Assembly (NCBI GenBank): GCA_900617105.1
Contig: UYFQ01000256.1
Span: 1 to 48,911 of the forward strand
Origin: Hydrurus foetidus
Lineage: Eukaryota
DNA: 48,911 nucleotides
Direction of reading: 5' to 3'
The position numbers were made by a program, and so were the translations under genes. Shown here in pieces: positions 1,071 to 22,592 of this stretch. Within the stretch, counting starts at the first letter, position 1. Every line of letters begins with the position of its first letter. The notes below the pieces were generated by a model that did no database searches, was not told the origin of the DNA, and was given only the letters and a program-made list of their open reading frames with translations.

Positions 1071-1709
1071 GTGTCAGACCCTAGCGCGTGCTCAACCCTA
1101 CTCAAGAGGACGAGCGGAAAGTGGACAGAATCTTATCCTACTTGCTCTATACAAGGCACCAAGCTATGGTTCTCTGTATCGGCGACAAGCTATGGTTCTC
1201 TTGAAGTCCGCGCCTATGTCGATGCCTCCTTCGGAATGTATGAAGATGGCAAATCAATCACAGGAGTTGCGATTATGTTGGGCAGTGCTACCATTCATGT
1301 CAAGTCAGGCAAGCGAAAGATTGTTACCCGGTCGTCGACGGAATCGGAGCTTGTCGGAATCTCAAACGCCTTGTCGCAGATTTTATGGACAAGGTAATTC
1401 CTCCTAGCCGCTGGGTTGAAATTGGGACCAGCAATCGACTTCCAGGACAACCAGTCCACAATATTCCTGGGAAATAAAGGAAGATCTGCAAGTGAGAGGA
1501 GCCGCCACATTAAAATCAGATACTTCTTCGTCCATCATTACATCACGTCAAAGGAAGTGGAATTAAAATACTTGCCTACCTCTGAAATGGTCGCCGATAT
1601 ACTTACGAAACCGTTGCATGAGGCGCTCTTCCAGAAATTCCGCGGGCAGCTGACAGGGTCACCAATAACTCCCCACACCGATAACTCGTGTTGCAGTTAC
1701 CTCTTTTAA
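1071..1709 (+). pseudogene. Copia RNase H domain, disrupted
   Basis: YVDASFG..DGKSITG, VTRSSTESELV, FQDNQSTI, RSRHIKIRYFF, MVADILTKPL; in-frame TAA at 1395-1397 between two same-frame ORFs. Confidence 0.9.
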
Positions 1710-2590: not shown

Positions 2591-3898
2591 TAGGACGAAC
2601 GAACATTCGTTCGTTCGAAGATGAACGAACATTGAACATGAACGAAGAAAAGCGGGGGTTTTCGTTCGTTCGCGAAAGGATGAAGGATTGAAATGGAGTA
2701 AGTAAAAATCGTTCATGAACGAATCAAACATGAACGACACATGAACGAATTCGTTCGTGAACGATGAACGATAGGAGCAGTGTTCCAAAATGATGTTCGC
2801 GAATGGACAGTGAAAAAATTCGTTCATCATTCGTTTATGTTTCGTTCATGTTTCGTTCATGTTTCGTTCATGTTTCGTTCATGATTCGTTCAACTTCCAT
2901 TTAGCTTTCCTTCGTCTTTATCCTGAGTAGTGTCATAGGTATATGCGCATATATTTAGAGACCGTATCGATGCATATGTACCTATATTCTCTCATATATT
3001 TACATATGCAGAACAGAAAATTCCATATGCAATCCATTTTTAAGTACCTCTCTGCGACAACAATCCCCAATGACATCAATTATCCTAAACGTGAACAAAT
3101 GCTCATGGTTTTTGCCCCAAAAAATACTTGTCGAAAAAAAATCAAAAATCAAAAAAAATAATTATCGCTGCAATCGCATTTTCGACAGGAACTCAGATCG
3201 CTACAGTTTTTTCGATTTTTCTCCTCAAATAAAGGTCTGATCGGGACTGTCCAGCTGGACTCATTGAGTACTGGTTGACACTGGGGGCCAAGAAGTATCC
3301 TGTCATGGCTGTAGTCTCTTTAGCCCAAGTGGGGACTCCACCGGGATCTGGTGTCCTTGAGAATTACTTCGGCTCCTTTGCGAACCTGGTTACGCGCCAC
3401 CGATCAACTCTTGATCCAGCTATGGTCGAGATGATTTTGTTTTGTAAACTGAATTTCTCTCTTATTTCAAGCATCATACCTGCCACCGCAACAGCGGCAA
3501 TTAATGAGATACGATTCCTATCCGACAGAAGAAGACTATATACAAGACAATCTGCAACACGCTAATGACATACCTGCAGATATTGATAGTGACCTTGAGG
3601 AAAAAAACAATTTTGAGGATGACATTTAGAATAAGTTCAACTGGCCTAATTTTCTTTCCATAGAGTAGCTCATTAAATAACTTATATCTTTCTTAAAATA
3701 TTTTTTTCACCGAAAAATGTTCATAAAACGAACGAACATTGAGCGAAGTATTTGAACATGAACGAACGATAGGTGAACAACAATGTTCAAACGATAGCAG
3801 GAGAATTTAGAGTTTTCCTTCATGAACGGATTTTTCGTTCGTGAACGAAATGTTTTTTTTTCGTTCGTGCATGTTTCGTTCATCGTTCGTTCGTCCTA
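2591..3898 (+). mobile_element. Non-autonomous (internally deleted) hAT transposon, 1308 bp
   Basis: TIR TAGGACGAACGAAC / GTTCGTTCGTCCTA; dense subterminal GAACGAAC/GTTCGTTC motifs at both ends; hAT C-terminal dimerisation remnant inside; no matching 8-bp TSD seen. Confidence 0.8.
3275..3565 (+). pseudogene. hAT transposase C-terminal dimerisation domain fragment
   Basis: W..LGAKKYPVMAVVSLAQVGTPPGSGVLENYFGSFANLVTRHRSTLDPAMVEMILFCKLN fits the hATC pattern (YP.L..LA...L..P.SS...ER.FS......T..R..L....VE.L.F...N). Confidence 0.8.
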
Positions 3899-3981
3899 GC
3901 TGTGAAGATCTCAGATTAAAGTGGCCGTAGTGGCCGTGTGGTAGCCGGCTAGTCCCACAGACGGCTAGTCCCACACGCCGA

Positions 3982-4254
3982 TGTTGTATATTGCATACGT
4001 AGCACTGGTGTTAGTACGAGGTGTACGTACGCACGCTACACTTCATGTGTGAGTTGATGCGTGCGCGACACTTTGGATGCATGACCGAATATATATATAT
4101 TAGGTTGAGTTGCTAACTGTAAACTTGATGAACATGATCGTGTGTCATGCTTCACAAGTTCTAATAACAAGTGATTGAGCGAAACCAGCATTTCACGAGC
4201 CTTGAGAAGATATCCGTGTAAGCGAACCTCACCAGATATCCAGATTTCTCAACA
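3982..4254 (+). repeat. 5' LTR of Copia-A
   Basis: Direct repeat of 7645-7917; TA-repeat TATA-like run near 4090-4101. Confidence 0.97.
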
Positions 4255-4281
4255 TATTAAAACTTACCAGGAGCCATTGTG

Positions 4282-7200
4282 ATGCCTCCAAAACGTGCTG
4301 GTGAACCCAAGGAAGTCCCGGAATGCATTCTCAAGATTGGAAAGTACAACAACGTTGTAGCTTGGAACCTAGAAATGCGCTCCGTAGTAGGAACCATAAA
4401 TGGGGCCACAGCCAACTTCCTCACGGGTAATATGAGATACGTTCCACACTATCCGACAGAAGAAGACTATATACCTGTAAACCCGGCACTTGCGGAAGGG
4501 GTGGCGCAGCCAGTCATCCCCGCGGCGTTGATAACAAAGCTAAGGGAGGACTGTTTCACTGGCAGACGCAAAGAGATGGCCCAACAACGCAAGGATGAAC
4601 AGAAAATCTGGTCCATTATGTGGACTAGAATGTCGCCCGCATCGCAAAGTAAAGTCCAGGAGGAGCCCGAATATGAGGCGGCGCTGCTGGCACGGGACTG
4701 CGTACTACTGTGGGAGTTCATTCGGCGCACCCACCTTACGCACATCTATGGGGACGGAGACCCTATGCTCGCCCTGAACATTCAGGAGCAGGAACAAAGA
4801 TACAATGCTCTTAAACAAGGGGACAGAGAGTACGTGTCCAATTTCAAGATCCGTTTCGACGCACAGGTGCACGCGTGTAGGGGTGCAGGAGTGGCAGAAA
4901 TCACGGAACCAAAACGCGCATTGGATTTCATCTACAAATTGGACCCTAAGAGATTCACTAAGATGATCGCGTTCATGAGGAACAATGCTCTGCTCATGGA
5001 GGGAGATGCATTCCCACAGACCCTTGCAGCCGCTTGCCGTATAGCATCCGGTTGGGTTAATGAAGATACCGGTGGACCCCAAGTCCCAGGAATCGAAACC
5101 CACTCTGCCTTTGCAACCGAAGAAAGCAACCTAGTAGCGAAGTCTAAGGATACGGAGAAAGGAAAACGGAGTACGACGAAGGGCGAATCCGCTACGAAAA
5201 AGAAACCATCTACCGAAGTTGAATGCTTCGTGTGCGGTCTCACCGGCCACTATGCTCGGGACTGTCCGACTAAGAAAGGAGCAGCACGTGCCCTCATCGC
5301 TGCTACAAATGCGGCCAACAATAACGATTCATTTGACGATGATGACGGTGAGGAGACCGCCTACATCACTACTGGGGAGACTCTTTTGTTCTCAAGAGAC
5401 GATGTACTGTTGGACAGTCAGGCGTCAGTTAATATGGCATACGGTACACAAAGCGGGTTACGGAAAGCGGATGATCCAACGTACATGCGATCAAGCGGAG
5501 TTACGGTAGACCCGGCGATTACTGCTAACGAAGACATCGTACAGGAAATTCCCACGATTCCCCAGTACTCACCACCACACCAACAAACTCTAGCGGATGA
5601 TATTGGAGTAGAACCGAATGCACAAGCGGAAGTGCAGAACGAAACATATTTTGACATGCCAGATCTGGATGTCGGACCGTTGATAGAGTTCGAACAATAC
5701 GAAGAACCGGAAGTCAATCGTGGCGCATCGATTCCAGCATCACCTCCACGATCAGTCAGAACCACACCAGTGTACGCGAGGTATAACACTGTTGCACAAC
5801 CGAGTACACCTCTGAGACGAGATCTGATGAACTATTATAACGCCAATGATGTCGCACTCACCACCGTGTTAGCGGCATGTATACCAACTGTAGACAGCGG
5901 AGGAAATAACGAGCACGTTATGAACATCTCGGTGAAAGAAGCGCTGCGAACTAGGGGTGCAGATGCAGAACGAGTCATACTAAAGGAACTGTCACAAATG
6001 ATCGACAAAAAAGTATGGACTCCGATACAAATAAGAGCGCTCACAGGTACGGAAAAAAGGGGAATTATTCGCTCTCAGATGTTCCTGAAGGAGAAATACT
6101 TGCCGACGGGTGCGTTTGAGAAGTTGAAGGCACGCCTAGTTGCTGGTGGAAATCAGCAGAACAAAGATCTGTACGACGATCTCTCTTCTCCAACAGTGTC
6201 TACAAGTGCTGTAATGACAGTATTTGCTATCGCAGCATATGAGAAGAGAAATGTTGCTGTAGTTGATATTGGGGGTGCGTATCTAAACGCCGACATGGAC
6301 ACAGGAATTACGGTGCATATGCGTTTGGACAAAATGATGTCGTCAATGGTGCGTAAAATCGACGAGACATATGGAGATTATATGGACGACAAGGGATGTG
6401 TCGTAGTCCGTCTCGATAAGGCGTTGTACGGATGTGTGGAATCCGCAGCATTGTGGTACGAGAACCTGTCAGGGGTACTAAAAGATTTCGGTTATAAGAA
6501 GAACAGATATGAAATATGCGTATACAACAAGACGAATAACAAAGGGGTACAGTGCACTGTTGCAGTGCATGTAGACGATCTCATTATATCGAGCACCGAC
6601 AAAGAAATGATCAGAACACTGTGCGATAACTTGAGAGAAAAGTATGGAGTGATCACACGTGCGGACGGTCCTGTTGTTAATTACCTTGGTATGGTTTTCG
6701 ATCTTACTATACCAGGTGAGGTCAGGATGACTATGAGAGGATATATTGAGGATACGATAGCGTATGGTGGTGTAACGGGTACTGCCAAGAGTCCGGCCAC
6801 CGAAGGCCTATTCGAAACGCGCGAAGGTGCGACTGGGGCTAGTGAGAGCGACAGGGTCTGGTTTCACAGTGTGGTTGCTAAACTCAGCTACCTAGCGAAA
6901 AGTGCCAAACCGGAGTGTCTTACTGCCGTAGCTTTCTTGGCGACAAGAGTAACCAGATGCACGGAAGGTGACATAGAGAAACTGAAGCGAGTATTGAGAT
7001 ACATCGCTGGTACCCGAGAGAATGGGGTAGTGTTCAGACCAGGGGTGCTTGGAATATGTGTGAGAGTGTTTGTGGATGCTGCATACGGAGTGCACGCGGA
7101 TGGCAAGTCGCACACAGGAAGCTGCATCGTGATAGGAGATGTCGGAGCGGTACACTGTAAGTCGAGTAAGCAGAGTATTGTTACAAAGTCTAGTACAGAG

Positions 7201-7485
7201 GCTGAACTGGTCGCGTTGTCGGATTCAGCGAACCAAGGACTGTATCTATGCAATTTCTTGAAGGATCAAGGACACTCGATTGGTCCGGTGACCGTATACC
7301 AAGACAACACGTCTTGTATGTCTCTTGTGGGTAAGGGACGATCTGGAGCAGAACGTACTCGACACATTAACATCAGATATTTTTGGTTGAAAGAGAGGAT
7401 GGACACTGGAGAGGCCACCGTGGTACACAAAAGGACTAAAGACATGTATGCCAATGTACTCACTAAGCCACTACAAGGTGGATAA
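4282..7485 (+). CDS. Copia Gag-Pol with an in-frame deletion of most of the protease and the integrase; RT and RNase H retained
   Basis: Zn knuckle CFVCGLTGHYARDC; protease start LLDSQAS; no HHCC/DDE integrase; RT motifs KARLVAGG, VDIGGAYLNA, KALYG, VHVDD; RNase H FVDAA, STEAE, YQDN; TAA at 7483-7485 is followed by 12 more homologous codons (FRFERECLTGWV). Confidence 0.93.
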   Translation: MPPKRAGEPKEVPECILKIGKYNNVVAWNLEMRSVVGTINGATANFLTGNMRYVPHYPTEEDYIPVNPALAEGVAQPVIPAALITKLREDCFTGRRKEMAQQRKDEQKIWSIMWTRMSPASQSKVQEEPEYEAALLARDCVLLWEFIRRTHLTHIYGDGDPMLALNIQEQEQRYNALKQGDREYVSNFKIRFDAQVHACRGAGVAEITEPKRALDFIYKLDPKRFTKMIAFMRNNALLMEGDAFPQTLAAACRIASGWVNEDTGGPQVPGIETHSAFATEESNLVAKSKDTEKGKRSTTKGESATKKKPSTEVECFVCGLTGHYARDCPTKKGAARALIAATNAANNNDSFDDDDGEETAYITTGETLLFSRDDVLLDSQASVNMAYGTQSGLRKADDPTYMRSSGVTVDPAITANEDIVQEIPTIPQYSPPHQQTLADDIGVEPNAQAEVQNETYFDMPDLDVGPLIEFEQYEEPEVNRGASIPASPPRSVRTTPVYARYNTVAQPSTPLRRDLMNYYNANDVALTTVLAACIPTVDSGGNNEHVMNISVKEALRTRGADAERVILKELSQMIDKKVWTPIQIRALTGTEKRGIIRSQMFLKEKYLPTGAFEKLKARLVAGGNQQNKDLYDDLSSPTVSTSAVMTVFAIAAYEKRNVAVVDIGGAYLNADMDTGITVHMRLDKMMSSMVRKIDETYGDYMDDKGCVVVRLDKALYGCVESAALWYENLSGVLKDFGYKKNRYEICVYNKTNNKGVQCTVAVHVDDLIISSTDKEMIRTLCDNLREKYGVITRADGPVVNYLGMVFDLTIPGEVRMTMRGYIEDTIAYGGVTGTAKSPATEGLFETREGATGASESDRVWFHSVVAKLSYLAKSAKPECLTAVAFLATRVTRCTEGDIEKLKRVLRYIAGTRENGVVFRPGVLGICVRVFVDAAYGVHADGKSHTGSCIVIGDVGAVHCKSSKQSIVTKSSTEAELVALSDSANQGLYLCNFLKDQGHSIGPVTVYQDNTSCMSLVGKGRSGAERTRHINIRYFWLKERMDTGEATVVHKRTKDMYANVLTKPLQGG

Positions 7486-7644
7486 TTCAGATTCGAAAGA
7501 GAGTGTCTAACGGGATGGGTATAATGAGGACTGCTTTACCTGTCGAGTGGGCTATAATGTAAATGATAATATGCATTCTATAACTAAATGCGTGAAAGTA
7601 ATATGCTATGCAGACTGTTTGAATACTAGCCAGTACTGAGGGTG

Positions 7645-7917
7645 TGTTATATATTGCATACGTAGCACTGGTGTTAGTACGAGGTGTACGTACGCACGCT
7701 ACACTTCATGTGTGAGTTGATGCGTGCGCGACACTTTGGATGCATGACCGAATATATATATATTAGGTTGAGTTGCTAACTGTAAACTTGATGAACATGA
7801 TCGTGTGTCATGCTTCACAAGTTCTAATAACAAGTGATTGAGCGAAACCAGCATTTCACGAGCCTTGAGAAGATATCCGTGTAAGCGAACCTCACCAGAT
7901 ATCCAGATTTCTCAACA
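7645..7917 (+). repeat. 3' LTR of Copia-A
   Basis: Direct repeat of 3982-4254. Confidence 0.97.
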
Positions 7918-8173
7918 GCCGATGGTGGGTGCTTTCGGTAAACCGAAAAAATGACGGAAAGCTTCATTTTGGACAAAAAACTTTTTTTTATCGAGGCTTC
8001 AGTTTTTTTACTGAAAAAGCTGTTCGGTAAAATTGTTGAAGCTTCGTAACTCAAAGAAAGTAGTGGTTGGTGACGATTCATGTTTTTGATGAACTTCAGA
8101 AAATGAAGGTTTCAACGCTGCAACTTTTTACCGTTACAGCGCTCCATCACTTTCATCTGAACATATTGCTGAG

Positions 8174-9204
8174 ATGACTACGCCCGTTGCAGGCAAAACT
8201 GAAGTTTCTGTCAAATGGTTGGACGTGAACCGCAAAGTTCTCATCGACTGCATCGCCGAGCACTCAGACGGCAGATATTCCAATATGAAAAATAGTAAGA
8301 CTGCGTGGAAATCAGTCGTCGTAGATTTTAAGACAAAAACAGGTCTACCATACGATAAGAAAATTCTTACGACTCAAGTTCAAACGTTGAAAAGGAACTG
8401 GTCAACCTACGACCAGTTTGCAAATAACAGCGGGTTCGGGGTGGATGCGAAAGGTCTTGTAACAGCGGCGCCGGAGGCTTTGAATACCTACTTCGCCACG
8501 CACCCAAAGGCCGCTCATTTCGCCAACACACCACTGCCATTTTATTCAGAGCTGACCAAGCTCTTCTCGCGTAAGTAAAATAAGATGATTGAGTTTATGC
8601 TGAAGAATTATTCTTAATTTATGAAACTCATGTTACGATAAAATTTCATACAGTGGATACTGCTACAGGGATGTATGCTAAGGCTCCTAATGCTCTCAAG
8701 GCCGCCGCAATTCCCGCCGTAGTCGCCGCTTCAGGCTTGTCGCAGCCGCTGGATCTCTTCTCCTCCTCTGATGATGTGGAGGTCCTTGACGGCGCGGCCG
8801 CTGCCACGCCAGTTCGAAACTCGTCCAGCGAGCAACTATTGCCTGGCTCCAGTAGGTCCGAAGACTCGAGGACACCTGCGTCGAAAAATGTTAGCAACGG
8901 TAGAGTGGTTAGACCTTTTGTGAGGACACCTAAAGCACCGAGGGAGAAACCAGCAGATGCGTTTGCTTCCCTGCTCCAAGAGGTCATCAGTCACCAAAAG
9001 ATTGCTTCCTCCCGAGTTTCTCCGTTCGAGTCCGCGGTTGCGGCTTTCAAAGCAGGACATGCCGAAGGGCTGACATCAGCTGAAGTCAGGGGGATCATTT
9101 GCCTCTTCTCAGAGAATGCCCCCTTTGTCAATCAGTTCTTATCATTTGACGAGGAGTCGAGAGACTTCATCATAACCGAGAAGCTAACCCAGTTGGATAA
9201 TTGA
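8174..9204 (+). CDS. Harbinger Myb/SANT-like DNA-binding accessory protein; exons 8174-8570 and 8654-9204, 315 aa
   Basis: Trp-spaced N-terminus (KW...AWK...LKRNW..Y...NNSGFG.D); an 83-nt intron GTAAGT...CATACAG joins the two ORFs in frame to give ...ELTKLFSLDTATGMYA. Confidence 0.88.
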
Positions 9205-9425
9205 TGCTTACCTATATGAATCTCTTGTACCGTACCCCCCTCATTTTTTTCAAATTAATAAACGAATCTTCTATTTTTTAATTTATGAGAATTTTCTTGG
9301 GGGGACCGTAGTATACGGAAACGTATCCATCATTTTAAGGGAATTAGCAGCTAATTCTCTACAGTACAACAGTAAAACTCACTTCGTTAATACAATAAGT
9401 GATCTAATTAATATTACAAAAGAAA

Positions 9426-10583
9426 TCATGCAGCATTATGCTGAGCCATTACAACTAGATAATTTGCCCACATAGCGTCAGCTATACCATTTCGCCATGC
9501 TTTTAAAGCATTGTAGTTCGCTAATTGGTGATCCTCATCTTCATTATCAGCATGATTACCGTTTACAGCCTCTTCTTCTTGATAGAACTCATCCTCATAC
9601 AGCTGATTCATACGAATAAAATTGTGTACTAGAAAACAACAGTGAACAATATCACACTGAAACTCAAATTCATAAGGGCTCATTTCAATCAACACAGGGA
9701 ACCTACGTTTCAGAACACCATACATTCTTTCAATAACATTTCTTAATGATGAATGCCTAAGATTGAATAGTTCTTTTGCATTTTGAGGCCCATTTACATC
9801 ATACTCTCGTAGGTGATATCTAACACCACGATATGGAGTTAAAACATTTTCACTGAGGCCATATCCAGCATCACCTAAATAATACTTACCAGGAATAATA
9901 GGGAAACCTTTGTCTTTTGAGTCATCAAAAACACGACTATCGTGAGCCGATCCTTCCCAACCGCACAAAGCATATGCGAAAGTTAAGTCAAAGTTAGCCA
10001 CACCGAGTACATTTTGAGATATAAACTTTTTCCGATTTCGGAAAGCCTCTTGGTCTGCAATAGGAACGCGGGCATGTATATGAGTCCCATCCAAAGCTCC
10101 AACGCAGTTGTCAAAAAAAGGAGAGAATTTTGCAACATTGCTTATTTCTGGTGGTGTTGGGCCACCAACCATTGCGGGCTGAAATATGATAGCACTACAC
10201 CGTTTTAAGGCGTCACTAGTTTCGTGAACAACTTTGGAAATAGTTGCTGAACTGTGCTGCCATCTTTCTCTAATTTGACGGACGGTGTAACCCCGAAAAA
10301 CTTGGAATAAAATCATGAGTTTCTGGCCATTACAAATATACAACGAATTCAAAAGTCCCCCAGTCTCAGATAGAAATAATTGAAACTTCAAGAAAGTCGC
10401 ACGGTCCATTCTTGCAACCTCATGGAATCGATGGACATTGTACGTCTGCATGATCTCGTCGAAATACATCTGTCCAGTCAATGCAGAAGTATGCTGTAGC
10501 ACAGGAATGGGAACTGCATTGTGCAAAACTCCAAGCACAGCTGCAACAACAAGAACGACATCAATGCTACCAGCGTTTTCCAT
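9426..10583 (-). CDS. PIF/Harbinger DDE transposase (HARBI1/DDE_Tnp_4 type), 385 aa, uninterrupted
   Basis: CVGALDGTHI, GWEGSAHDSRV, YYLGDAGY, FNLRHSSLRNVIERMYGVLKRRF, LVHNFIR. Confidence 0.96.
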   Translation of the reverse strand: MENAGSIDVVLVVAAVLGVLHNAVPIPVLQHTSALTGQMYFDEIMQTYNVHRFHEVARMDRATFLKFQLFLSETGGLLNSLYICNGQKLMILFQVFRGYTVRQIRERWQHSSATISKVVHETSDALKRCSAIIFQPAMVGGPTPPEISNVAKFSPFFDNCVGALDGTHIHARVPIADQEAFRNRKKFISQNVLGVANFDLTFAYALCGWEGSAHDSRVFDDSKDKGFPIIPGKYYLGDAGYGLSENVLTPYRGVRYHLREYDVNGPQNAKELFNLRHSSLRNVIERMYGVLKRRFPVLIEMSPYEFEFQCDIVHCCFLVHNFIRMNQLYEDEFYQEEEAVNGNHADNEDEDHQLANYNALKAWRNGIADAMWANYLVVMAQHNAA

Positions 10584-10851
10584 GATGTTGGGATATAGTG
10601 ATAGTTGTGCAATACAGAGATGTCTATGATAAATTGGAAATTGGTCGTTTCGTGTTATGTACGTCGTCCGACATCAAGATCCATCCCCCCAAATTTTGGA
10701 CCCCCCAAAAAAAGAAAACCGTTCGGTAAAAAGATTTTGGGGAAAAAACACGATTTTTGAAAGTTGAATCTGGGGTCCGATTCAACTTTCAAAAAAGTGT
10801 AACTTTTTGACGGAAATTTACCGAACGCACCCGGTATCATCACATCATCAC

Positions 10852-11296
10852 TGTTGAGTTTTCACGTAGAACCGGGTACGCACAACCACAGGAGAAAGGT
10901 CTCTGGCAGTTGACTGATTCCTCTCAAGACTCGTGAAATACTGTCTGTTGCAATAATCACTTGTTAATTAGATTTGTGCGCTAACATCAATCTTGCAGCG
11001 CTACAAATCATCATGAACAGTTCACAAACTGAAAGCATCTCAAAAGGAATCAACCGCCAGGAGACCCTGACGGTTGGACAGAGGCAAAACTCCGCACGAA
11101 TCAGGTCTGGTTCCCTGACTGGAACCTAGACCGGATCTTGGACCGGGCTTCGGACCGGACCTTGGACTGGACCCCTGTCCGGACCTCGGACCGGACCCTG
11201 AGTCGGACTCTAGACTGAGTCCTGACTCAGACCATGGACCGTACATACTAAGCTACGCAAGTGCGGCATAACATGGGAATACCAGATATTCCAACA
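10852..11296 (-). repeat. 3' LTR of Copia-B
   Basis: Near-identical to 13452-13851 + 19399-19428 + 19884-19898; contains GGACC-rich short repeats. Confidence 0.92.
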
Positions 11297-11482
11297 ATCA
11301 CGTCCATAGTCCATGATCCATGATCACAATCAACAATCACAGTCTTCGAGTTATCACATCATATTTCCAGCAATCAACAACTTCCCATGACAACTGGGTA
11401 CTCTTCTCTGTGGCTCATTCAAGTGGAAATTACGGAGAGCGAAATGACTCGCATTTTCGGTGCTTTTTAGCTGTCGTCAAAA
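11297..11482 (+). repeat. 186-bp copy of the host flank (19899-20084) inside Copia-B, between the 3' LTR and the PPT
   Basis: Near-identical to 19899-20084 (one difference seen); starts with the TSD ATCAC; followed by CA and CACCCCTT (PPT on the minus strand). Confidence 0.9.
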
Positions 11483-11772
11483 CACACCCCTTATTTCGCA
11501 CGCAATACAGTTCAATCATCACACATGCAGTATATCTTCGCCCGGTTCCTTGACTGGACCCTGGACCAGATCTTGGCCTCGACCTTGGACCGGATGACTG
11601 TCCGGACCTCTCACTCGACCGTGGGCCAGACCCTTGACTGAGTCTTGACCCACTCCCCGCATGGCACATATAGTATACGCTACTCCTACTGTTGTTCTCT
11701 GTCTCTGTCTTGGGTCTTGTGCTGATGTGCTGTAAATCGGATGACATTGCCCACCCCTAATCTCACTCGGAC

Positions 11773-12546
11773 TCACTCCGTGTCTGCTCTCCACCCCGTT
11801 AGCGCCAGTCTCTCTGCCAGGAACTGCGCTCCTTGCAGTGGCTTCGTGAGCAGGTTCGCGAACATCGCTGCTGTCCCCATGTGCACGATGGCCGCCTCTC
11901 CCTTATCCACCCGCTCCTTCACCCAGAAATATCGTATGTTAATGTGCCTGGTCCTCTCCGCTGCTGACCTCCCACGCTGAACCAGTGCCATGCATGAAAG
12001 GTTGTCTTGGTATAGTATGAGAGAGTCCATCTTGTACCCCTGCGCTATGAGGATGTTCCTCACATGGATCCCCTGATGTGTTGAGTCGGACAGTGCCACC
12101 AGCTCCGCTTCCGTACTTGACTTTGTCACGATCTGCTGCTTGCACGATTTGCAGTGCACCGCGCCCATTTCCCCGATCACAATGCAGCTCCCGGTGTGGG
12201 ACTTCCCGTCGGCGTGCACCCCGTATGCCGCATCCACTAGCACCTTCACTACGATTCCTCCTTCTCCGATTCTCAATCTTATCCCATGTCCTCGTGTCGC
12301 TCTGATGTACTTGATCAGGCGCGCCAGCTTGTCCAAGTCATCCCTATCGCACCGTGATACCCTAGTCGCGAGGAATGCGACTGCAGTGAGGCAGTCTGGT
12401 CTTGCGCGCTTCGCAAGGTACAGTAGCTTGGCTACCATCGTGTGGAAGTGTCCCTGCCCTGCATCGGTCGCCTTCACTGTCTCGGGTCGCACCGAGAATA
12501 GGTTCTCGGTCCCTGGTGTCCTCGCACCCCCTGGAGACTCACTACC
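11773..12546 (-). pseudogene. Copia-B RT C-terminus and RNase H
   Basis: VAKLLYLAKRARPD, LVDAAYGVHADGKSHTG, SSTEAELVALSD, YQDN, FANLLTKPLQG. Confidence 0.93.
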
Positions 12547-13418
12547 GGGTCCCGGGCCTTCGTAACGTATGCTGCATCTGTAACATATGCATTACTAGTC
12601 TCTTCGTTCCTCTGGTATGCACCGTGCTGTCCCACACTATACTCCGATGCAAACTTATATGCTGCATTCAGAGTAGCAGGGTATGCATCTGCATGACCCT
12701 TAAGGGCATCGTACCGCATCCTCTCTCTCATGCTCTCATAGCGTCTGGAGTCTAGCTTGTATAGGAACTCCATGGCTCGTAGCGAATTCGTAAGTGGTAG
12801 TATACCGACACCTTCATTTACTAAAATTTGGTTGTCGTATCTAAGTTTGAAGACATTTATATTTTCTCGCTCACCTTGTCTGAGGACCTCGAACCGTGTA
12901 ATCTGTTCCATCCTGTTAACATCTGCCATATGCACCCATTCACCGTGTATGTGGGTGAGATGTGTGCTTCTTATGAACTCCCACAGTCGCACTGAGTCCA
13001 GGTTCACATGTGCGACCCTGAATCCGGCCTGTTCGGTTACCTTGTTTTGGGATGCGATTGACATTTTCGCCCACATGAGTGAGTATATGTTCTTCTCATT
13101 TTCGAGCTGTTTGTCGATCTTCCTCCTTTTCCCTTCTAGGGCGTTGTCTCTCAACTTGAGAATCGATGCAGCTGTCACGGGTGGGTACGGTGCCTCACCC
13201 TCTTCGACCGGTGGAATGACCGGCACGTAATCCAGCTCTCTGGGCATCGGCGGCACATATCTCTCATTCGTGATGAGGAATTGCCCGCTCAGCCCGTACA
13301 GCCCGCATACAATCACTTCCAATGCGTCTCTCCATTGGATAATGTTGTTGTATTTTCCGAACCGCAGAATGCACTCCGCTGCTTCCTTCGGTCCCTCGAC
13401 AGCTTTCTTCGGCGGCAT
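12547..13418 (-). pseudogene. Copia-B Gag, truncated before the Zn knuckle by a deletion that also removes the protease, integrase and most of RT (out-of-frame junction near 12547)
   Basis: MPPKK..ECILRFGKYNN..LWEFIRSTHLTHIHG..LRQGERE..FLYKLD aligns with Copia-A Gag. Confidence 0.9.
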
Positions 13419-14082
13419 CACGATGCGCAGAGCTGTTGCTTAATCTAATTATGTTGAGTTTTCACGTAGAACCGGGTACGCACAACCACAGGAGAAAGGT
13501 CTCTGGCAGTTGACTGATTCCTCTCAAGACTCGTGAAATACTGTCTGTTGCAATAATCACTTGTTAATTAGATTTGTGCGCTAACATCAATCTTGCAGCG
13601 CTACAAATCATCATGAACAGTTCACAAACTGAAAGCATCTCAAAAGGAATCAACCGCCAGGAGACCCTGACGGTTGGACAGAGGCAAAACTCCGCACGAA
13701 TCAGGTCTGGTTCCCTGACTGGAACCTAGACCGGATCTTGGACCGGGCTTCGGACCGGACCTTGGACTGGACCCCTGTCCGGACCTCGGACCGGACCCTG
13801 AGTCGGACTCTAGACTGAGTCCTGACTCAGACCATGGACCGTACATACTAAGGCCACAATTCACCGTCACGTGATAACGCGATACGTGATAGTATCACGT
13901 GCAGATTATCACGTAAAACTTTGATTCGCCGGACACGCGATGACATTTCCAACGTGATAGTATCGCGGATCCTCCAATATTCAACGCGAAAAACAGATTT
14001 ATCGCGTCCTCGATTTTATCAAAACGCGATACATTATAGGACTACGTTGCCACCTTGGAAACCATACAATTTATTCAGACAG

Positions 14083-15308
14083 ATGGCAGACGAGGCATCA
14101 ATTCGAATGAATAGGGCAACTCGAGGACTGGGTGAAGCCTACATACTACTACTGTTGCTGGCATGGAACGATGTAGTTACGAACGGTTCGAAGCAGAGCA
14201 CCGCCCAGATTGAGCAATCTATTAAAGTGAGAGCAGCAGATTGGGTCAAGGAGCTGTTTGATAGTTACAAATACATTCCAATCAAAGATGCCACGGCTGA
14301 GTCTATCATGGCCCAAGTTGAGAAGGATTCTGGCGTCCAAATGTTGAGAAAGCCAAGGACGCTGTGGCTTTCATCATAAACGTCCTAAATCCTGCATGGA
14401 AAGATCCTGTCGCGTATGCTTCGGGAACTCAACTTGGTGACGCACTATCCGTATGTAAGGAGGCAGCTTGGCAGCGAAATGAGGAAGAGAAAAAGAAACA
14501 AGCAGCAAAGAGGAAAGTAGACTATCAACCGCGTCCATTTGATCCTAGCTGGCAAATCAAAGAGTGGCTATCCTTTCGCTACGTAGGCGTCCCATCCGGA
14601 AGGTCATGCGTTGATATTTGTGAGAAACGCACGTATCTATATATGCGAGAAACTAACTCCTTTGCCAATGTTCATTTAAACAGGACGAAATGCCTTCAAG
14701 TGCTGAAAACTCCACCCCCTGGTAGTGGCCCATCAAAAACAAAAGAGGTTCTGCCAACGGTATCATCTGAATCCTTGAGATCAGCTATGGCTGCGACAGG
14801 CGGCCGCAACCAGCGTCGTCTTGCGAATCTCAAAACTGAGACTACGAATACTCCAGAGACCGATCTGGAGCTGCAGATGATATCGAGCAGCATACTTGAG
14901 CAGCGGAAGATAGCATCGAACGTCAAATGGACGACTGAGAGAGAGAGATTGACGGCCATAGTTGACCTATCGAAGCAAATGCCAGATGTTACGGAATCTG
15001 AAAGATCCGCAAATATGCGTGAGTTGTATAATTTTTTGAAGCGCCCGGTAGAAGAGGTCGAACAGGTTTCGTTAGGAACCGCCAGCAAATCTTTGAAAAC
15101 TTCAAGAAACACTAATGTTGACTCTTTCTCAACTCCTGCTTCAGCTTTAGCTGCATCTTCTTCCTCTTCATCTAAACAGGTTGAGCAGGATGCGCGGGAT
15201 GATGACTACACAATTGTGCCTCCACTAAGATACCACCCTGATCAAACCGAGAGTGATGACAATTTTGAATACGAAGAAGACTACGGGATGCCATATGAAG
15301 CCATCTAA
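14083..15308 (+). pseudogene. Accessory (ORF1) gene of the Harbinger-like element; frameshift near 14355; possible 81-nt intron 14603-14683
   Basis: Homologous to 18789-19150(-) across the frameshift (..GVQMLRK/AK.AV..IINVLNPAWKDPVA.ASGTQLG); convergent with the transposase. Confidence 0.8.
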
Positions 15309-15311
15309 ACT

Positions 15312-15797
15312 CGTATACCACCTTCCCCAGTCCAGCCCAGTTCAGTCGTATACCACCTTCCCCAGTCCAGCCCAGTTCAGTCGTATACCACCTTCCCCAG
15401 TCCAGTCCAGTCCAGTTCAGTCGTATACCACCTTCCCCAGTCCAGTCCAGTTCAGCCGTACACCGCCTTCCCCAGTTCAGTCCAGTTCAGCCGTATACCG
15501 CCTTCCCCAGTCCAGTCCAGTTCAGTCGTATACCACCTTCCCCAGTCCAGCCCAGTTCAGTCGTATACCACCTTCCCCAGTCCAGTCCAGTTCAGTCGTA
15601 TACCACCTTCCCCAGTCCAGTCCAGTTCAGCCGTACACCGCCTTCCCCAGTTCAGTCCAGTTCAGTCGTATACCACCTTCCCCAGTTCAGTCCAGTTCAG
15701 CCGTACACCACCTTCCCCAGTTCAGTCCAGTTCAGTCGCACACCGCCTTCCCCAGTTCAGTCCAGTTCAGCCGTACACCGCCTTTCCAAGTCCAGTC
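15312..15797. repeat. Minisatellite, 35-40 bp unit CGTATACCACCTTCCCCAGT(CCAGY)nTCAGT, about 13 copies
   Basis: Directly visible tandem units whose length varies by CCAGT/TCAGT pentamers. Confidence 0.92.
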
Positions 15798-16049
15798 CCT
15801 AGCGGGTTTTTTTTGTGAACACAACTCACTTTTTTTTTAAATCTTTTTTTTATAACCTCTTTAAATCAATTGTATTCTCACACAATATCCTATACCTTAA
15901 TTCCTACTGCCTTTATTAAATCTGACTTTATTCTCAAAACTCCTCTCATCTTTCTTGTTATAAATTAAAAAAACATTATCCAACAAATTTTTTTTTTGAA
16001 AACGAGAAAATGAAATTTAAAATGAAAATAAAATGAAACTATTTAAAAC

Positions 16050-17513
16050 TGGTAAGTTTTAATTTCCTTTATTGTACACTAGTTTTTTTTCTTCAGTAAA
16101 CTTAGTGGGCCACTTTACAATCCCGAATTATATGCATGTACAAAATGATCAACAAGTATGCGACGTTTCATATTAAAGTCAGTATCCCATTCTTCTATGA
16201 ATTCATTCCCTATCATCCTTTCCTCCTCTTCTGTATTATCGATTGATGAAATCCACTCAGATACACGTCTATTAATTAATATTTGCTGACTTCCCATCAC
16301 ACCCTCTTCTACCTCATCAAACCCTTCATCTGAATTAGTCGGTTGCGGGTGGATAGCTTCCCAATCCACATCCTTTTCCCATCTACAATCCAAGCCATCA
16401 TCCTCTAAAATCATATTGTGTAAAATGCAGCACGTAAAGAATACATTATCTATTGAATTTTGATCTTGCAATACAATACCGTTTCTGAGAAATCTCCATC
16501 TACCTTTTAAACTACCAAACGTGCATTCAACATCTTTTCTAGTAGATTCAATCCACTCAGACCATATTCGATCACTTCTAACAGATGTTTGTTTCATAGG
16601 ATTTATCATGCATGTCCACTTATGATTACCACCATCACAAATATAATAAACACCTTTCATTGGTTTTAAAACTCCATCAATAAAAACATTGAACTCAATA
16701 TTTTCATTTACTTTTTTTCTCTGACATCAGTAATATAAGTATCACCACGGACAATGGTTTTATCATTTTTGCCCCCCAATAACTGCTTGTAGATGCAAGT
16801 ATTCTGTGATGATGATCTACAGTACATGAGTAAGCAAGAGTTGGATATCCTTCCTTCCCACTACACTGTTGCGCCAAGCCTACGGGGCATCGATCCCATT
16901 TGAGGTGAACGCAGTCGGTTGATCCAATACAACCGGGGAGACCCATTTGTTCAAAAACTTTCATAACTTTGAAAAGCTTTTCACCCACTGGACGATAAAC
17001 ATATATTGAATAATATTCTCTGACAAAATTTTCACAAAAAGTGTGAAAAGCCCTTCTCGCTGTGGATTCACCCATGAAAGTTGCCTCCGCAATGTCGTCG
17101 AAGTTCCAATTTCTTCCCAAAATTCGAAGCACGGACAAAAGCTTGATTTCCACTGGGCATAAAGTTCGACCAGTGATATCCCTATCCCTACTTGCATTTT
17201 CTCCGAAAAGATTTTTGTCCAAGCACTTTTGTACCAGATTGCAAAAAACACCGTAAGGAACTCGAAATCGACGTCGGAATAGTTTTCCGTCTCTTGAGTC
17301 AATCGATGGTCCACCATCAATTTGTGCCAGGCGCACTAATAGCTGACCCCACGGAGAGCATTGGTAGTTGATGTCGTTCAAACGTTGAACGTTTGGTGGA
17401 GTACGCTGAGGTCTGCGATTTAGCTTGGCGATAGAACGCCTCTTCGCCATCCTTTTCATGATCGCCATCATCACCGAAAACTGACCGAGAATGAACTTGG
17501 TTGAGTAGATCAT
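16050..17513 (-). pseudogene. Harbinger-like DDE transposase, frameshifted
   Basis: FRRRFRVP, GLPGCIGSTDCVHLKWDRCP, YYICDGG, ESTRKDVECTFGSLKGRWRFL, CCILHNMILEDD; frameshift at the C-run near 16770 and probably another near 16117. Confidence 0.92.
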
Positions 17514-17951
17514 CTTTCAAAGATTCTTGGTTCAAAAAGCTATGTGCTATCATCTGGTAGATAGCTTGAAACGGTCATCTTGGGTAAAAAATTCTTAAAA
17601 ATTTGAATTTTTGAATTATCACGTGCAGATTATCACGAAAAACGGTGAAACGTGGAAAAGTTCGTATACGTGATAATCTGCACGTGATACTAACGCGTAT
17701 CGCGTTATCAGGCTACAATTCACCGCAACGTCTAAACGGAGTCGGTGTAGTATAACGTAGATTCTGACCGTGTGCTACAATTTGACTTAATTCACCGTTC
17801 TCCGGAATACATCTTACGTTATAATTCAAAATTCGAAAATTTGAATAATTTCTCGACTTTTACCGACCGTTACATCATTTCTAAGCAACATATGCTATAG
17901 CTTCTAGTGACTTCTGATGCACAAATTTTTGAAGTCGGTTCGCTCCTCAGG

Positions 17952-18788
17952 ATGATTTATTCTCTTAGTCAGTTTTCTGCCATGATGATGATCATGCTAA
18001 GGGTCATCAAGAGGCGCAAAGTTGCAAAGTCAAGTGCAAAGCCACGGCGTAGTCCTACGTCTGTTCCCCGATTGAAGGCAATCGATTATTGGTACTCTCC
18101 ATGGGGTCAGCTTCTGAGGCGTTTTGCTGCAATTGATGGTGGACCATCAATTGCATCAAGAGACGGCAAATTGTTCAGGCGCCGATTTCGAGTCCCATAC
18201 AGCGTATATCGCAATTTGGTGCAGAAATGCCACGAGAAGAACCTCTTCGGTGAGAATTCTTCTAAGGAAAAGGATATTACTGGGAGAAGTATTTGTCCTG
18301 TTGAAATCAAATTATTGTCGGTACTTCGAGTACTGGGCCGGAATTGGAATTTTGATGACATCGCTGAGGCAACATTCATGGGGGAGTCGACTGCAAGGAG
18401 AATGTTCCACACATTTTGTTCTAATTTTGTGGAACACTTTTATTCGGTGTTTGTTTACAGACCAACTGGTGACAAACTATCAAGAGTCATGAAAGTTTTT
18501 GAGCCAATGGGATTACCGGGCTGTATTGGCTCCACAGACTGTGTTCATTTAAAATGGGATCGGTGTCCTGTTGGACTTGCTCAACTATGCTCTGGTAAGG
18601 AGGGATTTCCTACTCTTGCATATTCTTGCACAGTAGATCATCACCATAGGATTTTAGCATCTACTACTAGTTATTGGGGTGCAAAAAATGATAAAACGAT
18701 AGTGCGTGGAGATACTTATATTACAGATGTGAGAGAAAAAAAAGTACACGATGATGTAGAGTTTAATGTTTATGTAAATGGTGTATTG
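17952..18788 (+). pseudogene. N-terminal ~280 aa of the Harbinger-like transposase, truncated by deletion
   Basis: Highly similar to 16704-17513(-); ends before the second catalytic Asp motif (YYICDGG). Confidence 0.92.
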
Positions 18789-19150
18789 TACTCACCTAGT
18801 TGAGTTCCTGAGGCAAACGCAACTGGATCCTTCCAAGCAGGATTCAGGACGTTAATGATGAGAGTCACCGCCTCCTTGGCCTTTCGCAACATTTGCACGC
18901 CAGTATCCTTGTCAACCAATGTTGAAAGGACTTCGGGCGTCGCGTCCTTTATTGGTATGTATCTATAATTGTCGTAGATCTCCTTTACCCAGTCCGCGGC
19001 TCTCACTTTCAGAGACTGTTCAATTTGAGGAACACTCTGCTTCCCTCCGTTGGTGACAACGCCATTCCATGCGAGGAGGAGAAGAAGTGTGTATGCTTCA
19101 ACCAATCCTCTTGTCGATCTAACCATACGAGCAGTAACTTCCTCCGACAT
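18789..19150 (-). pseudogene. N-terminal fragment of the accessory ORF1 gene
   Basis: MSEEVTARMVRSTRGLVEAYTLLLLLAWNGVVTNGGKQS... aligns with 14083 onward; fused tail-to-tail to the transposase fragment. Confidence 0.85.
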
Positions 19151-19428
19151 TCTGTGGCTTTGCAATGTGGCTACGTCGCCCCATTTGATGATAGCGTTTT
19201 ATAAAAATAGAGAACGCTATATATCTATTTTTGACGTTGAAGATTTGAAAATCCGATCCAAGATAACGTCGAAAAAAATGCCGGGAGTCCGGCGAACCAG
19301 CTATTTCCGTTAAAAAACAACACGTTATACTACACCGACTCCGTTTAGACGTTGCGGTGAATTGTAGCCTCACGTGACGGTGAATTATTGTGGCCTAAGG
19401 TACGCAAGTGCGGCATAACATGGGAATA

Positions 19429-19881
19429 CCGTCGAGTGCCTATTCTTTTGCCATTTTCGATTTCCGGTTTTCAGAATTTCGGGGATTTTCGGCTGTTTTC
19501 CAACAATTTCGCGACAACTAGAGAAGTGGGGACCCCGATGAGATGTGTCAGGTGTTGCCTGAAGTTGTCCGCATCTTTTGATATATGACGGTCATGCACC
19601 TACGATGAGCAGATCGGCTGCAAATCGCGATCCAAAATGAACTTTTGGTCCCTTGCAATCGAAATTTCTCGATTTTGGGGAGCGCAGATTGAAAACTGAA
19701 TAGACAGTATACCCAAAATAACTATGCTCTTTCCGAATCCACTATCACATTTGCGTGAAATTCTATGTCCAAGGAGTTAGCAGTTCCCGTTGGCAATTAC
19801 CGTGTCAAAATTTCCGTGATTCTGACCGTTGTCAAAATCCTATTCTCACTTCAAAATGGCAAAAGAATAGGCACTCGACGG
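19429..19881. mobile_element. Tc1/mariner-type MITE, 453 bp
   Basis: Perfect 29-bp TIR CCGTCGAGTGCCTATTCTTTTGCCATTTT; TA duplicated at 19427-19428 and 19882-19883; the empty site GGGAATACCAG is present in the other LTR (11275-11285). Confidence 0.93.
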
Positions 19882-20089
19882 TACCAGATATTCCAACAAT
19901 CACGTCCATGGTCCATGATCCATGATCACAATCAACAATCACAGTCTTCGAGTTATCACATCATATTTCCAGCAATCAACAACTTCCCATGACAACTGGG
20001 TACTCTTCTCTGTGGCTCATTCAAGTGGAAATTACGGAGAGCGAAATGACTCGCATTTTCGGTGCTTTTTAGCTGTCGTCAAAATTATC

Positions 20090-21041: not shown

Positions 21042-22109
21042 TGGATCTTAAGGTCATTTGCCGAATAGAGATGAGCATTTTTAATTCTATCCTCCTTAAT
21101 TGGCAAGCTCTCATCGTGTTTCCTGTATCAATTGTATGAAGTGTTCGTAACGGAACAGATTTCTTTTGATAAGTGGCATCTGGAGTGTTTGAAGCAGCTC
21201 TTGAAAAATTGTGGAATCATCTCTTAAACAATTTATTTAAAAATGGCCCCCTCTCATTCAGTACGCATTGTTATCCCAAATGATCCTGTGATGTAACTGG
21301 AAGCAAATTCACCACCTTACTTTATCGGCATTTTAGACGAAATACTGCTTTTCATCTCCAACAATTTTACTGTCATACCATGAATCAAGCAAGCAGATGA
21401 CCACCGACATGTATTACATGATTTTTTTAATTTATGTTGTCCTATGGTCTCTAACAGAACTTGCTCTGGATGATCGAGAACATAAAATGAATTCGACGTT
21501 TGTGAATTGCTCTTCCTCTCCCCTGATTCAATCTGTCAGAGAGCTTTTAAGTTGCAGCCTTTTTACTTTCTGAAGTCGAGTTTGATGATTGAAACCAGAT
21601 TCCTTTCCGAGTTGAGAGTGCTGCTGTTATGGCGCGCCATGTCGAACCCCTGAAATTTTACAGAAAAATTTAAAATTCGAACACGAAATTTTTGTTCACA
21701 CAAATTTTCACGTGCAACATTTCTTTCCAACCGTTGCTGCCAGGAATCGGGACCAAAACCGGAAATGAATCGGTAGAAACAGAATTGCTTAATGTTTTAC
21801 TGGTTGAAAGATTGTGTGAGATGTGAATGAGTGAATGATTGTAATTATGTGAATTGTGAATCATATGACGTCGAATGCTATGCACTTCAATGTTGAGATG
21901 TTGGAACTTCAATGTCGAGATGGTGAAACTTCAACGTGTTGAATGGTTGTACAGTGTATGTGTATACAAAACGATGACATGCGCCGGTAAGCCATATGCT
22001 AAAGATTGTGTAGCGTAAATGAAATATGAATACAAGTGAGGATTAGGGGGAAGAGTTAGTGGTATTATGTTTTACGAGTTGACGAAATATTGAACAGTTG
22101 GCTCCGAAA

Positions 22110-22592
22110 TTATAGGAATTCAGAGGGAGATAGAGTTTTAGTGAGCCCATCCGCTATCATATCGTGTGTGCTTATGTGGCGGGGCGCAATTTGGTTAGTC
22201 TTGGACAGCCAGCGGACGTAATGCGATTTGAGGGCTATGTGGCGCGATTTGCGTGTAATTTGGTTGGCTGTGGTCAGGTTAATGGCGGGTTGATTGTCTT
22301 CAAGTATGGTAGTGGGTTGTTGTTGTAGGAATCCTATGTCAGCAGCGAATTGTCTGAAGAACATGACGTCTTTGGCGCAGCGACCAAGAGCAAGGTATTC
22401 TGCTTCGCAGGGGCTGAGGGCGATACCTGACGTCTCCGCGGAGGAGTGGACAACAAAGGGTGCATTAACTGTGCCTATTTGGATAGTATACGCAGAGTGT
22501 GAGTGGCCATCTGGATGGCATGCGTGTGAGGAGTCTGCAGCCGCGAAGATGGTGACGCCGGATGTGAAGGCAAGTGGATCAGTGGAGTAGGC
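22110..22592 (-). pseudogene. Divergent Copia RNase H remnant abutting the satellite
   Basis: AADSSHA, ALSPCEAEYLAL, ILEDNQPAI, RKSRHIALKSHYVR, MIADGLTKTL, then a stop. Confidence 0.88.

Follow-up and report, generated by a model that had tools for sequence, protein, structure and literature searches.

In the window, i.e. the whole 48,911-nt stretch of Hydrurus foetidus DNA analysed here, an LTR retrotransposon (Copia-A) was found that very probably belongs to a clade of Copia elements with Tf1-like self-priming, in which the first 9–25 bases of an element's own transcript would serve as the primer. A self-priming Copia lineage had been proposed from an earlier inspection of the DNA letters (the sequence-only reading), and the proposal is now well supported by covariation: the family letters pair at 11/11 positions, a second family in the window (Copia-B) pairs with other letters, and relatives retain the pairing in register. 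The features of the two families are listed in Table 1.

Table 1. Features of Copia-A and Copia-B in the window
Feature	Position	Strand	Remarks
Target-site duplication (TSD) GCCGA, left copy	3977–3981	+	Right copy 7918–7922
Copia-A 5′ LTR	3982–4254	+	273 bp, TGTT...AACA
Initiator-like TCACA	4152–4156	+	Predicted transcription start A4154 or A4156
Predicted self-primer segment	4156–4166	+	Second copy in 3′ LTR, 7819–7829
Predicted U5 stem-loop	4202–4252	+	Fold; ends 2 nt short of primer site
Primer-binding site (predicted)	4255–4265	+	Abuts LTR, no spacer; complementary to 4156–4166; no TGG
Gag (zinc knuckle), protease start, RT and RNase H, one ORF	4282–7485	+	
Polypurine-tract end GAGGGTG	7638–7644	+	R-GG(G/A)GTG before LTR common to relatives
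Copia-A 3′ LTR	7645–7917	+	273 bp
Copia-B overall	10852–20084	−	Same clade; Gag 43% identical to Copia-A
Copia-B 3′ LTR	10852–11484	−	
Copia-B Gag and RNase H pieces	11791–13420	−	Only coding pieces kept
Copia-B primer-binding site (predicted)	13442–13451	−	
Copia-B 5′ LTR	13452–13852, 19395–19430, 19882–20084	−	Split by insertions
Copia-B LTR segment pairing 10/10 with own site	13565–13574	−	Second copy 10965–10974

Copia-A is a young copy, the LTRs of which differ by a single mismatch (LTR position 5). It has the TG...CA LTRs and, at 5 bp, the TSD within 4–6 bp by which Ty1/copia elements are recognized, and its RT is of the Copia type (RVT_2, PF07727; 93.5 bits vs a cut-off of 31.6). The LTR end was set independently, by the divergence between both LTR copies, and is supported in addition by contigs from other insertions, which exit the LTR at 4254. 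By comparison with the nearest full-length relative (P0003), about 460 residues, comprising the remaining protease and the integrase, are absent in frame near 5431–5436, and the ORF stops at 7483, some 12 codons before the end of the aligned relative. Copia-A is a presumed non-autonomous copy that has lost its integrase, a loss that would limit its movement to cases in which helper proteins are supplied. P0003 contains, between protease and RT, a D,D,E-like stretch, judged by eye, which we take to be the integrase motif; no integrase match was obtained for P0003 in Pfam or PDB sequence searches, the latter returning zinc knuckles only. Atlas look-alike clusters bear rve, Pol_BBD and SH3_retrovirus. 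The Copia-A sequence is present in three freshwater and biofilm metagenomes and in runs of one organism; none of the indexed runs listed as containing it is an RNA run. Outside the element, a 43-base piece at 3504–3543 is 88% alike to the Copia-A Gag sequence at 4432–4474.

The bases following the 5′ LTR of Copia-A, TATTAAAACTT (the site), form ten Watson–Crick pairs in 11 with the LTR segment AAGTTCTAATA. Both this figure and the register, in which the 3′ base of the segment faces the first base after the LTR, are as given in the sequence-only reading, which was also correct in finding no TGG: none lies within 0–5 nt of the LTR end, and a Copia element primed by a full tRNA was rejected for that reason. 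When the LTR was shuffled 5000 times with dinucleotides preserved, a 10/11 match arose in 16 shuffles (p about 0.003), or in 28 with offsets of 0–3 allowed; for the real LTR, 4 of the 3375 internal 11-mers match it equally well.

The one mispaired position had been ascribed to a private mutation, A4260, and this was rejected: the base at 4260 is the family letter, and the private change is instead T-to-C at 4161. All 17 related contigs (4, 6, 5 and 2 contigs, from four runs in four studies) carry T at 4161 throughout their depth, the variants listed for the related-copy contigs include none at 4260, and C4161 is found in both LTRs of Copia-A. Read with T4161, the pairing in the family is thus complete, at 11/11. 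The perfect pairing suggested for the family consensus thus exists, but by way of T4161 and not of a changed 4260. Minor subfamilies alter the site (C at 4255, G at 4259, T at 4262, or one T lost at 4264–4265); these variants come from short contigs, to which LTR partners are not linkable.

Copia-B provides a comparison within one window. Each of the two sites pairs at 10/11 positions with its own LTR and at 7/11 with that of the other family, in both directions. Of the first ten site bases, those at positions 3, 5, 7 and 9 are not the same in the two families, and each of these four changes has its counterpart in the LTR. Between Copia-A and L103, the single Gag-close locus with a 5′ end, six of ten site positions differ; five are answered, and the sixth is the position of C4161. 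The sequence ACAAGT, 3′ of the segment, is kept in 4/4 near kin compared.

The Copia-B 5′ LTR is without its outer TG and is broken by a 5.5-kb insertion (13853–19394), containing Plant_tran/DDE_Tnp_4 transposase pieces, and by a 451-bp element (19431–19881) with 31-bp inverted ends. Two diverged, inverted transposon halves with common ends of 44–49 bp occupy 13851–19370 and are probably nested or paired elements; 16668–18787 matches itself at 69%, and 13851–14440 matches 18792–19370 at 70%. A short-period tandem repeat (units of about 35 and 5 bp) follows an ORF inside the transposon insertion, at 15311–15798. Elsewhere in the window, a PIF/Harbinger-like pair, in which a Myb/SANT gene (+) faces a DDE_Tnp_4 transposase (−), lies at 8093–10673, and RNase H fragments of two further Copia families lie at 1206–1658 (+) and 22095–22559 (−), the first of them followed at about 2041–2048 by a tract-like GGGGTA and then TG. 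Over 22891–48911 a 361-bp unit is repeated 72 times in tandem, most copies being 98–100% alike.

Relatives were collected with an RT pattern from metagenomes (78 loci, from the best 80 of 571 confirmed) and from genome bins (23 loci). The bins are labelled bacterial, and their Copia contigs are likely to be eukaryotic contaminants; among those of L080–L098, several hold one or more eukaryote-type Copia contigs, with up to eight loci in one bin. Scans of viral contigs gave one unrelated locus, and a Gag-pattern scan of metagenomes gave no loci. Loci of at least 3 kb yielded 55 regions upstream of Gag, many of them from collapsed circular contigs, and 47 regions were left after removal of five duplicates and three regions shorter than 200 nt.

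In the first of two tests, the LTR end was set blind to stems, from the polypurine tract and the terminal inverted repeat; 17 of 56 regions were without a tract, and 36 relatives were scored. Because close kin are included among the relatives, the counts that follow do not represent independent events. A perfect stem of at least 9 bases, beginning at the first base after the LTR, was present in 20/36 relatives, and one of at least 12 bases in 12/36. The corresponding figures were 3/1260 and 1/1260 when sites were paired with LTRs of other families, and 1/36 in a register control started 2–4 nt inside the LTR. In the second test any CA end was admitted, and stems of at least 9, 10 and 12 bases were observed in 36, 27 and 19 of 47 regions, as against 72, 17 and 4 of 2162 cross-family pairs. 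Other anchors (TA, AA, GA, TG, TT and CT) gave 0–2/47, and AC, which denotes the same site one base earlier, gave 19/47. The scored region was widened after some failures had been traced to a mis-called Gag start, and the counts then became 40, 31 and 22 of 47 (cross-family control: 106, 25 and 5 of 2162). Overall, the cross-family rates were 0.2–5%. The stems in relatives are 9–25 bases long (median 12), with loops of 46–205. The sequence-only reading had allowed that complementarity might be lost across the family; by these counts it is kept in register, in 20/36 and 36/47 relatives.

A stem of at least 9 bases was missing in 16/36 relatives under the blind rule and in 7/47 in the widest test (L017, L040, L005, L052, L027, L029 and L070). 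In L052 a longer stem is interrupted by one mismatch, and in L005 and L070 the stem follows an end other than CA; some of the failing relatives are thus wrong-CA picks or single mismatches, and L017, L040 and L027 are unexplained. Among the positives, at least L020 looks like a chance match. Two loci, L004 and L058, consist of tandem elements with one common LTR and may be assembly loops; tandems sharing one LTR are described as made by Tf1 through an integrase-free route (PMC11042837). L074, a distant Copia element with an RT 25% identical, was left unscored, its LTR being unclear; in this element (8630–8725 and 1486–1836) a stem of 9 bases lies two bases past a CA end, and upstream there is a very long inverted repeat.

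The 5′ edge of the stem was examined for signs of a transcription start. YCA was found there in 29/40 relatives vs a background of 12%, and YCAY in 21/36 vs 7%, the YCA p-values being post hoc, since the motif was picked after the data had been viewed. The A of YCA is the first paired base in 17/40 and lies one base earlier in 9/40. YCA is presumably an initiator. In Copia-A it would place the start at A4154 or A4156; one subfamily changes 4151–4152 and keeps 4153–4156 (CAC-A), and Copia-B has the same layout, with its YCA at 13575–13577, for which reasons 4156 appears favoured. The TATA-like run noted in the sequence-only reading does lie at 4090–4100, 56 nt upstream of the segment, but as a clue to the start it did not hold up: TATAWA occurs 18–45 nt upstream of the segment in 0/40 relatives, the length of the run also varies, and it was rejected as a promoter sign. 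Initiator-like YCA seems the better sign of the start. Two RNA runs labelled with the same species, about 6 in 100 of each sampled, gave 4 and 7 reads, all less than 90% alike, which map where the polypurine tract meets U3 in a relative and do not extend across 4156–4265. The YCA data bear also on an alternative in which the primer is the 3′ end of the transcript, the segment copy in the 3′ LTR (7819–7829) pairing back onto the site either because it ends the RNA or because it becomes exposed once the tail is removed. Since the segment is present in both LTRs, the same covariation would be expected; a primer of this kind would, however, have no need of the YCA at the stem's 5′ edge, and the alternative is judged very unlikely.

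The letters of the sites bear on a further alternative, in which a host tRNA, or half of one, serves as primer (the situation in FunCo1, Bianca and Osser) and the LTR match would be a hairpin with a regulatory role, masking the site. Half-tRNA priming is described as common in Copia (PMC6317226), the FunCo1 site, ATTAAGAGTCT (PMC5445492), resembles the start of the Copia-A site, and the first five site bases are biased across the clade, to about YAATT, a bias that might be left over from a site for a tRNA half. Against this, the site 11-mers are different in 40 of 40 elements, each tracked by its own LTR (mean pairwise identity of sites, 0.40 in the 36-element set), no TGG is present in the first 8 site bases of any of the 40, and the sites of Copia-A and Copia-B differ within a single host window. 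A hairpin covering the entire site would, moreover, compete with the tRNA. No tRNA-like Rfam match was obtained in 3900–4400, where a search at E values up to 10 gave two chance snoRNA matches only, and ARAGORN found no tRNA in the window. Priming by a tRNA or its half is considered very unlikely.

Folding predictions were made for the Copia-A RNA. The duplex is weak as modelled, with an energy of −3.7 kcal/mol vs −7.4 for the perfect 11-mer, so that the private mismatch halves the predicted value. Its pair probability is 0.54–0.73 when the RNA begins at 4150–4156, 0.23–0.29 for a start at 4130 and 0 at 4100; the duplex fades with upstream starts, and the structure would therefore need a 5′ end near the segment. 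The predicted duplex adjoins the U5 stem, and among relatives the U5 end is predicted to be paired in 34/42, vs 19.5 expected from shuffles. A primer acting in trans, i.e. short capped RNAs from any family LTR (solo, 3′ or helper) that anneal without a cis fold-back, would account for a copy with C4161 in both LTRs, the family primer pairing at 11/11. This is nevertheless highly improbable, given that the predicted cis fold sets the duplex beside the U5 stem in both Copia-A and Copia-B and that the Tf1 precedent acts in cis. As for a chance match, the 11-mer is AT-rich and many elements may have been inspected, but the cross-family and register controls refute it and its probability is negligible.

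From the observed pairing, register and covariation, we infer the following course of start, cleavage and copying for self-priming. Transcription would begin at the initiator-like YCA in the LTR, and the first bases of the transcript are predicted to fold onto the site abutting U5, beside the U5 stem. RT/RNase H would then, as in Tf1, cleave past the paired stretch, after 4166, and free a 3′ OH opposite 4255, where minus-strand synthesis would start. The plus strand would later copy the primer back into the site; as a result, site and LTR would stay matched while their letters drift, and stems would end exactly at the start site. The Copia-A copy itself might take its primer from co-packaged family RNA.

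Stems are spread over all branches of a quick RT tree; since the trees were made by a quick method, with midpoint rooting and no true outgroup, neither monophyly nor a direction of change is claimed. RTs within the clade are as little as 37–39% identical, and the RVT_2 scores of its elements are weak (61–94 bits). L097, with a 14-base stem, lies in a branch that contains Fragilaria crotonensis proteins. The chances are about even that self-priming is the rule in a deep, diverse clade of Copia elements of aquatic microbial eukaryotes, including diatoms and the window host, and that it either arose apart from Tf1 and plant TAR or was kept from an early tRNA-free ancestor. The freedom of the primer letters and length (9–25) would then follow from the rewriting of the site, in each round, from the 5′ end of the transcript. 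If this reading is true, the genomic site records the transcription start to the base, and predicts it for each family. The free-letter pairing in the clade amounts to natural compensatory-change evidence, and the clade suggests that Copia RT/RNase H can probably carry out Tf1-type priming. It bears on the proposal that self-priming is older than, and preceded, tRNA priming (PMC3601003). LTR finders that require a tRNA site would miss or downgrade such elements.

Among known systems, the only demonstrated case of self-priming is a Gypsy element, and within Copia it has been predicted for a single plant lineage. In Tf1/Tf2 the site is paired by a self-primer situated in R, which RT releases by cleavage (PMC4600332, PMC5341516), and in about half of Tf1 cDNAs a copy of the site is reported at the 3′ end (PMC11042837). 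The window clade resembles Tf1/Tf2/Tj1, Tf1/sushi and Tcn1 (Ty3/gypsy), as described, in that an AT-rich site by the 5′ LTR is complementary to an LTR segment and no tRNA site is evident; this segment is taken to be the mRNA 5′ end in Tf1 and is predicted to be so here. Unlike Tf1, the mechanism of which has been shown, the window clade is Ty1/copia, with an RVT_2 RT and a probable integrase before the RT in full-length kin, its primer length varies across families, and its mechanism is deduced. Membership of Tf1/sushi, a group with a Gypsy-type RT and the order RT-RH-IN, was rejected, because the RT is RVT_2 and the ORF of full-length kin closes with RNase H.

The fungal GalEa elements (Conserved Hairpin Site) are likewise Copia with no evident tRNA site (PMC5445492). 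Both arms of their hairpin are described as lying downstream of the LTR, conserved in sequence and without an LTR partner, whereas in the window clade the partner lies inside the LTR and its letters are free. A likeness to the diatom CoDi Copia elements is seen in that one branch of the RT group holds diatom proteins together with L097; identity between the window RT and the Fragilaria proteins, with which the comparison was made, is only 39%, and the window RT falls on a separate, supported branch of the same RT group. The main text of the CoDi paper (PMC2806351) makes no mention of primer sites.

A parallel in kind is provided by the plant TAR Ty1/copia elements (Houba, Osr-1), for which self-priming is predicted in 89% of 203 elements (PMC6317226). 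Given that prediction, a self-priming Copia element is not new in kind; no report of one outside plants was found in the open full-text literature searched. TAR and the window clade have in common, from the published description, a site complementary to the element's own LTR, a 5-bp TSD and a prediction made from sequence. The weak RVT_2 scores and the motifs suggest that the clade may be distant from TAR. TAR elements are from plants, whereas the relatives of Copia-A were recovered from samples of freshwater, biofilm and marine origin, and a sister branch contains proteins of Fragilaria crotonensis.
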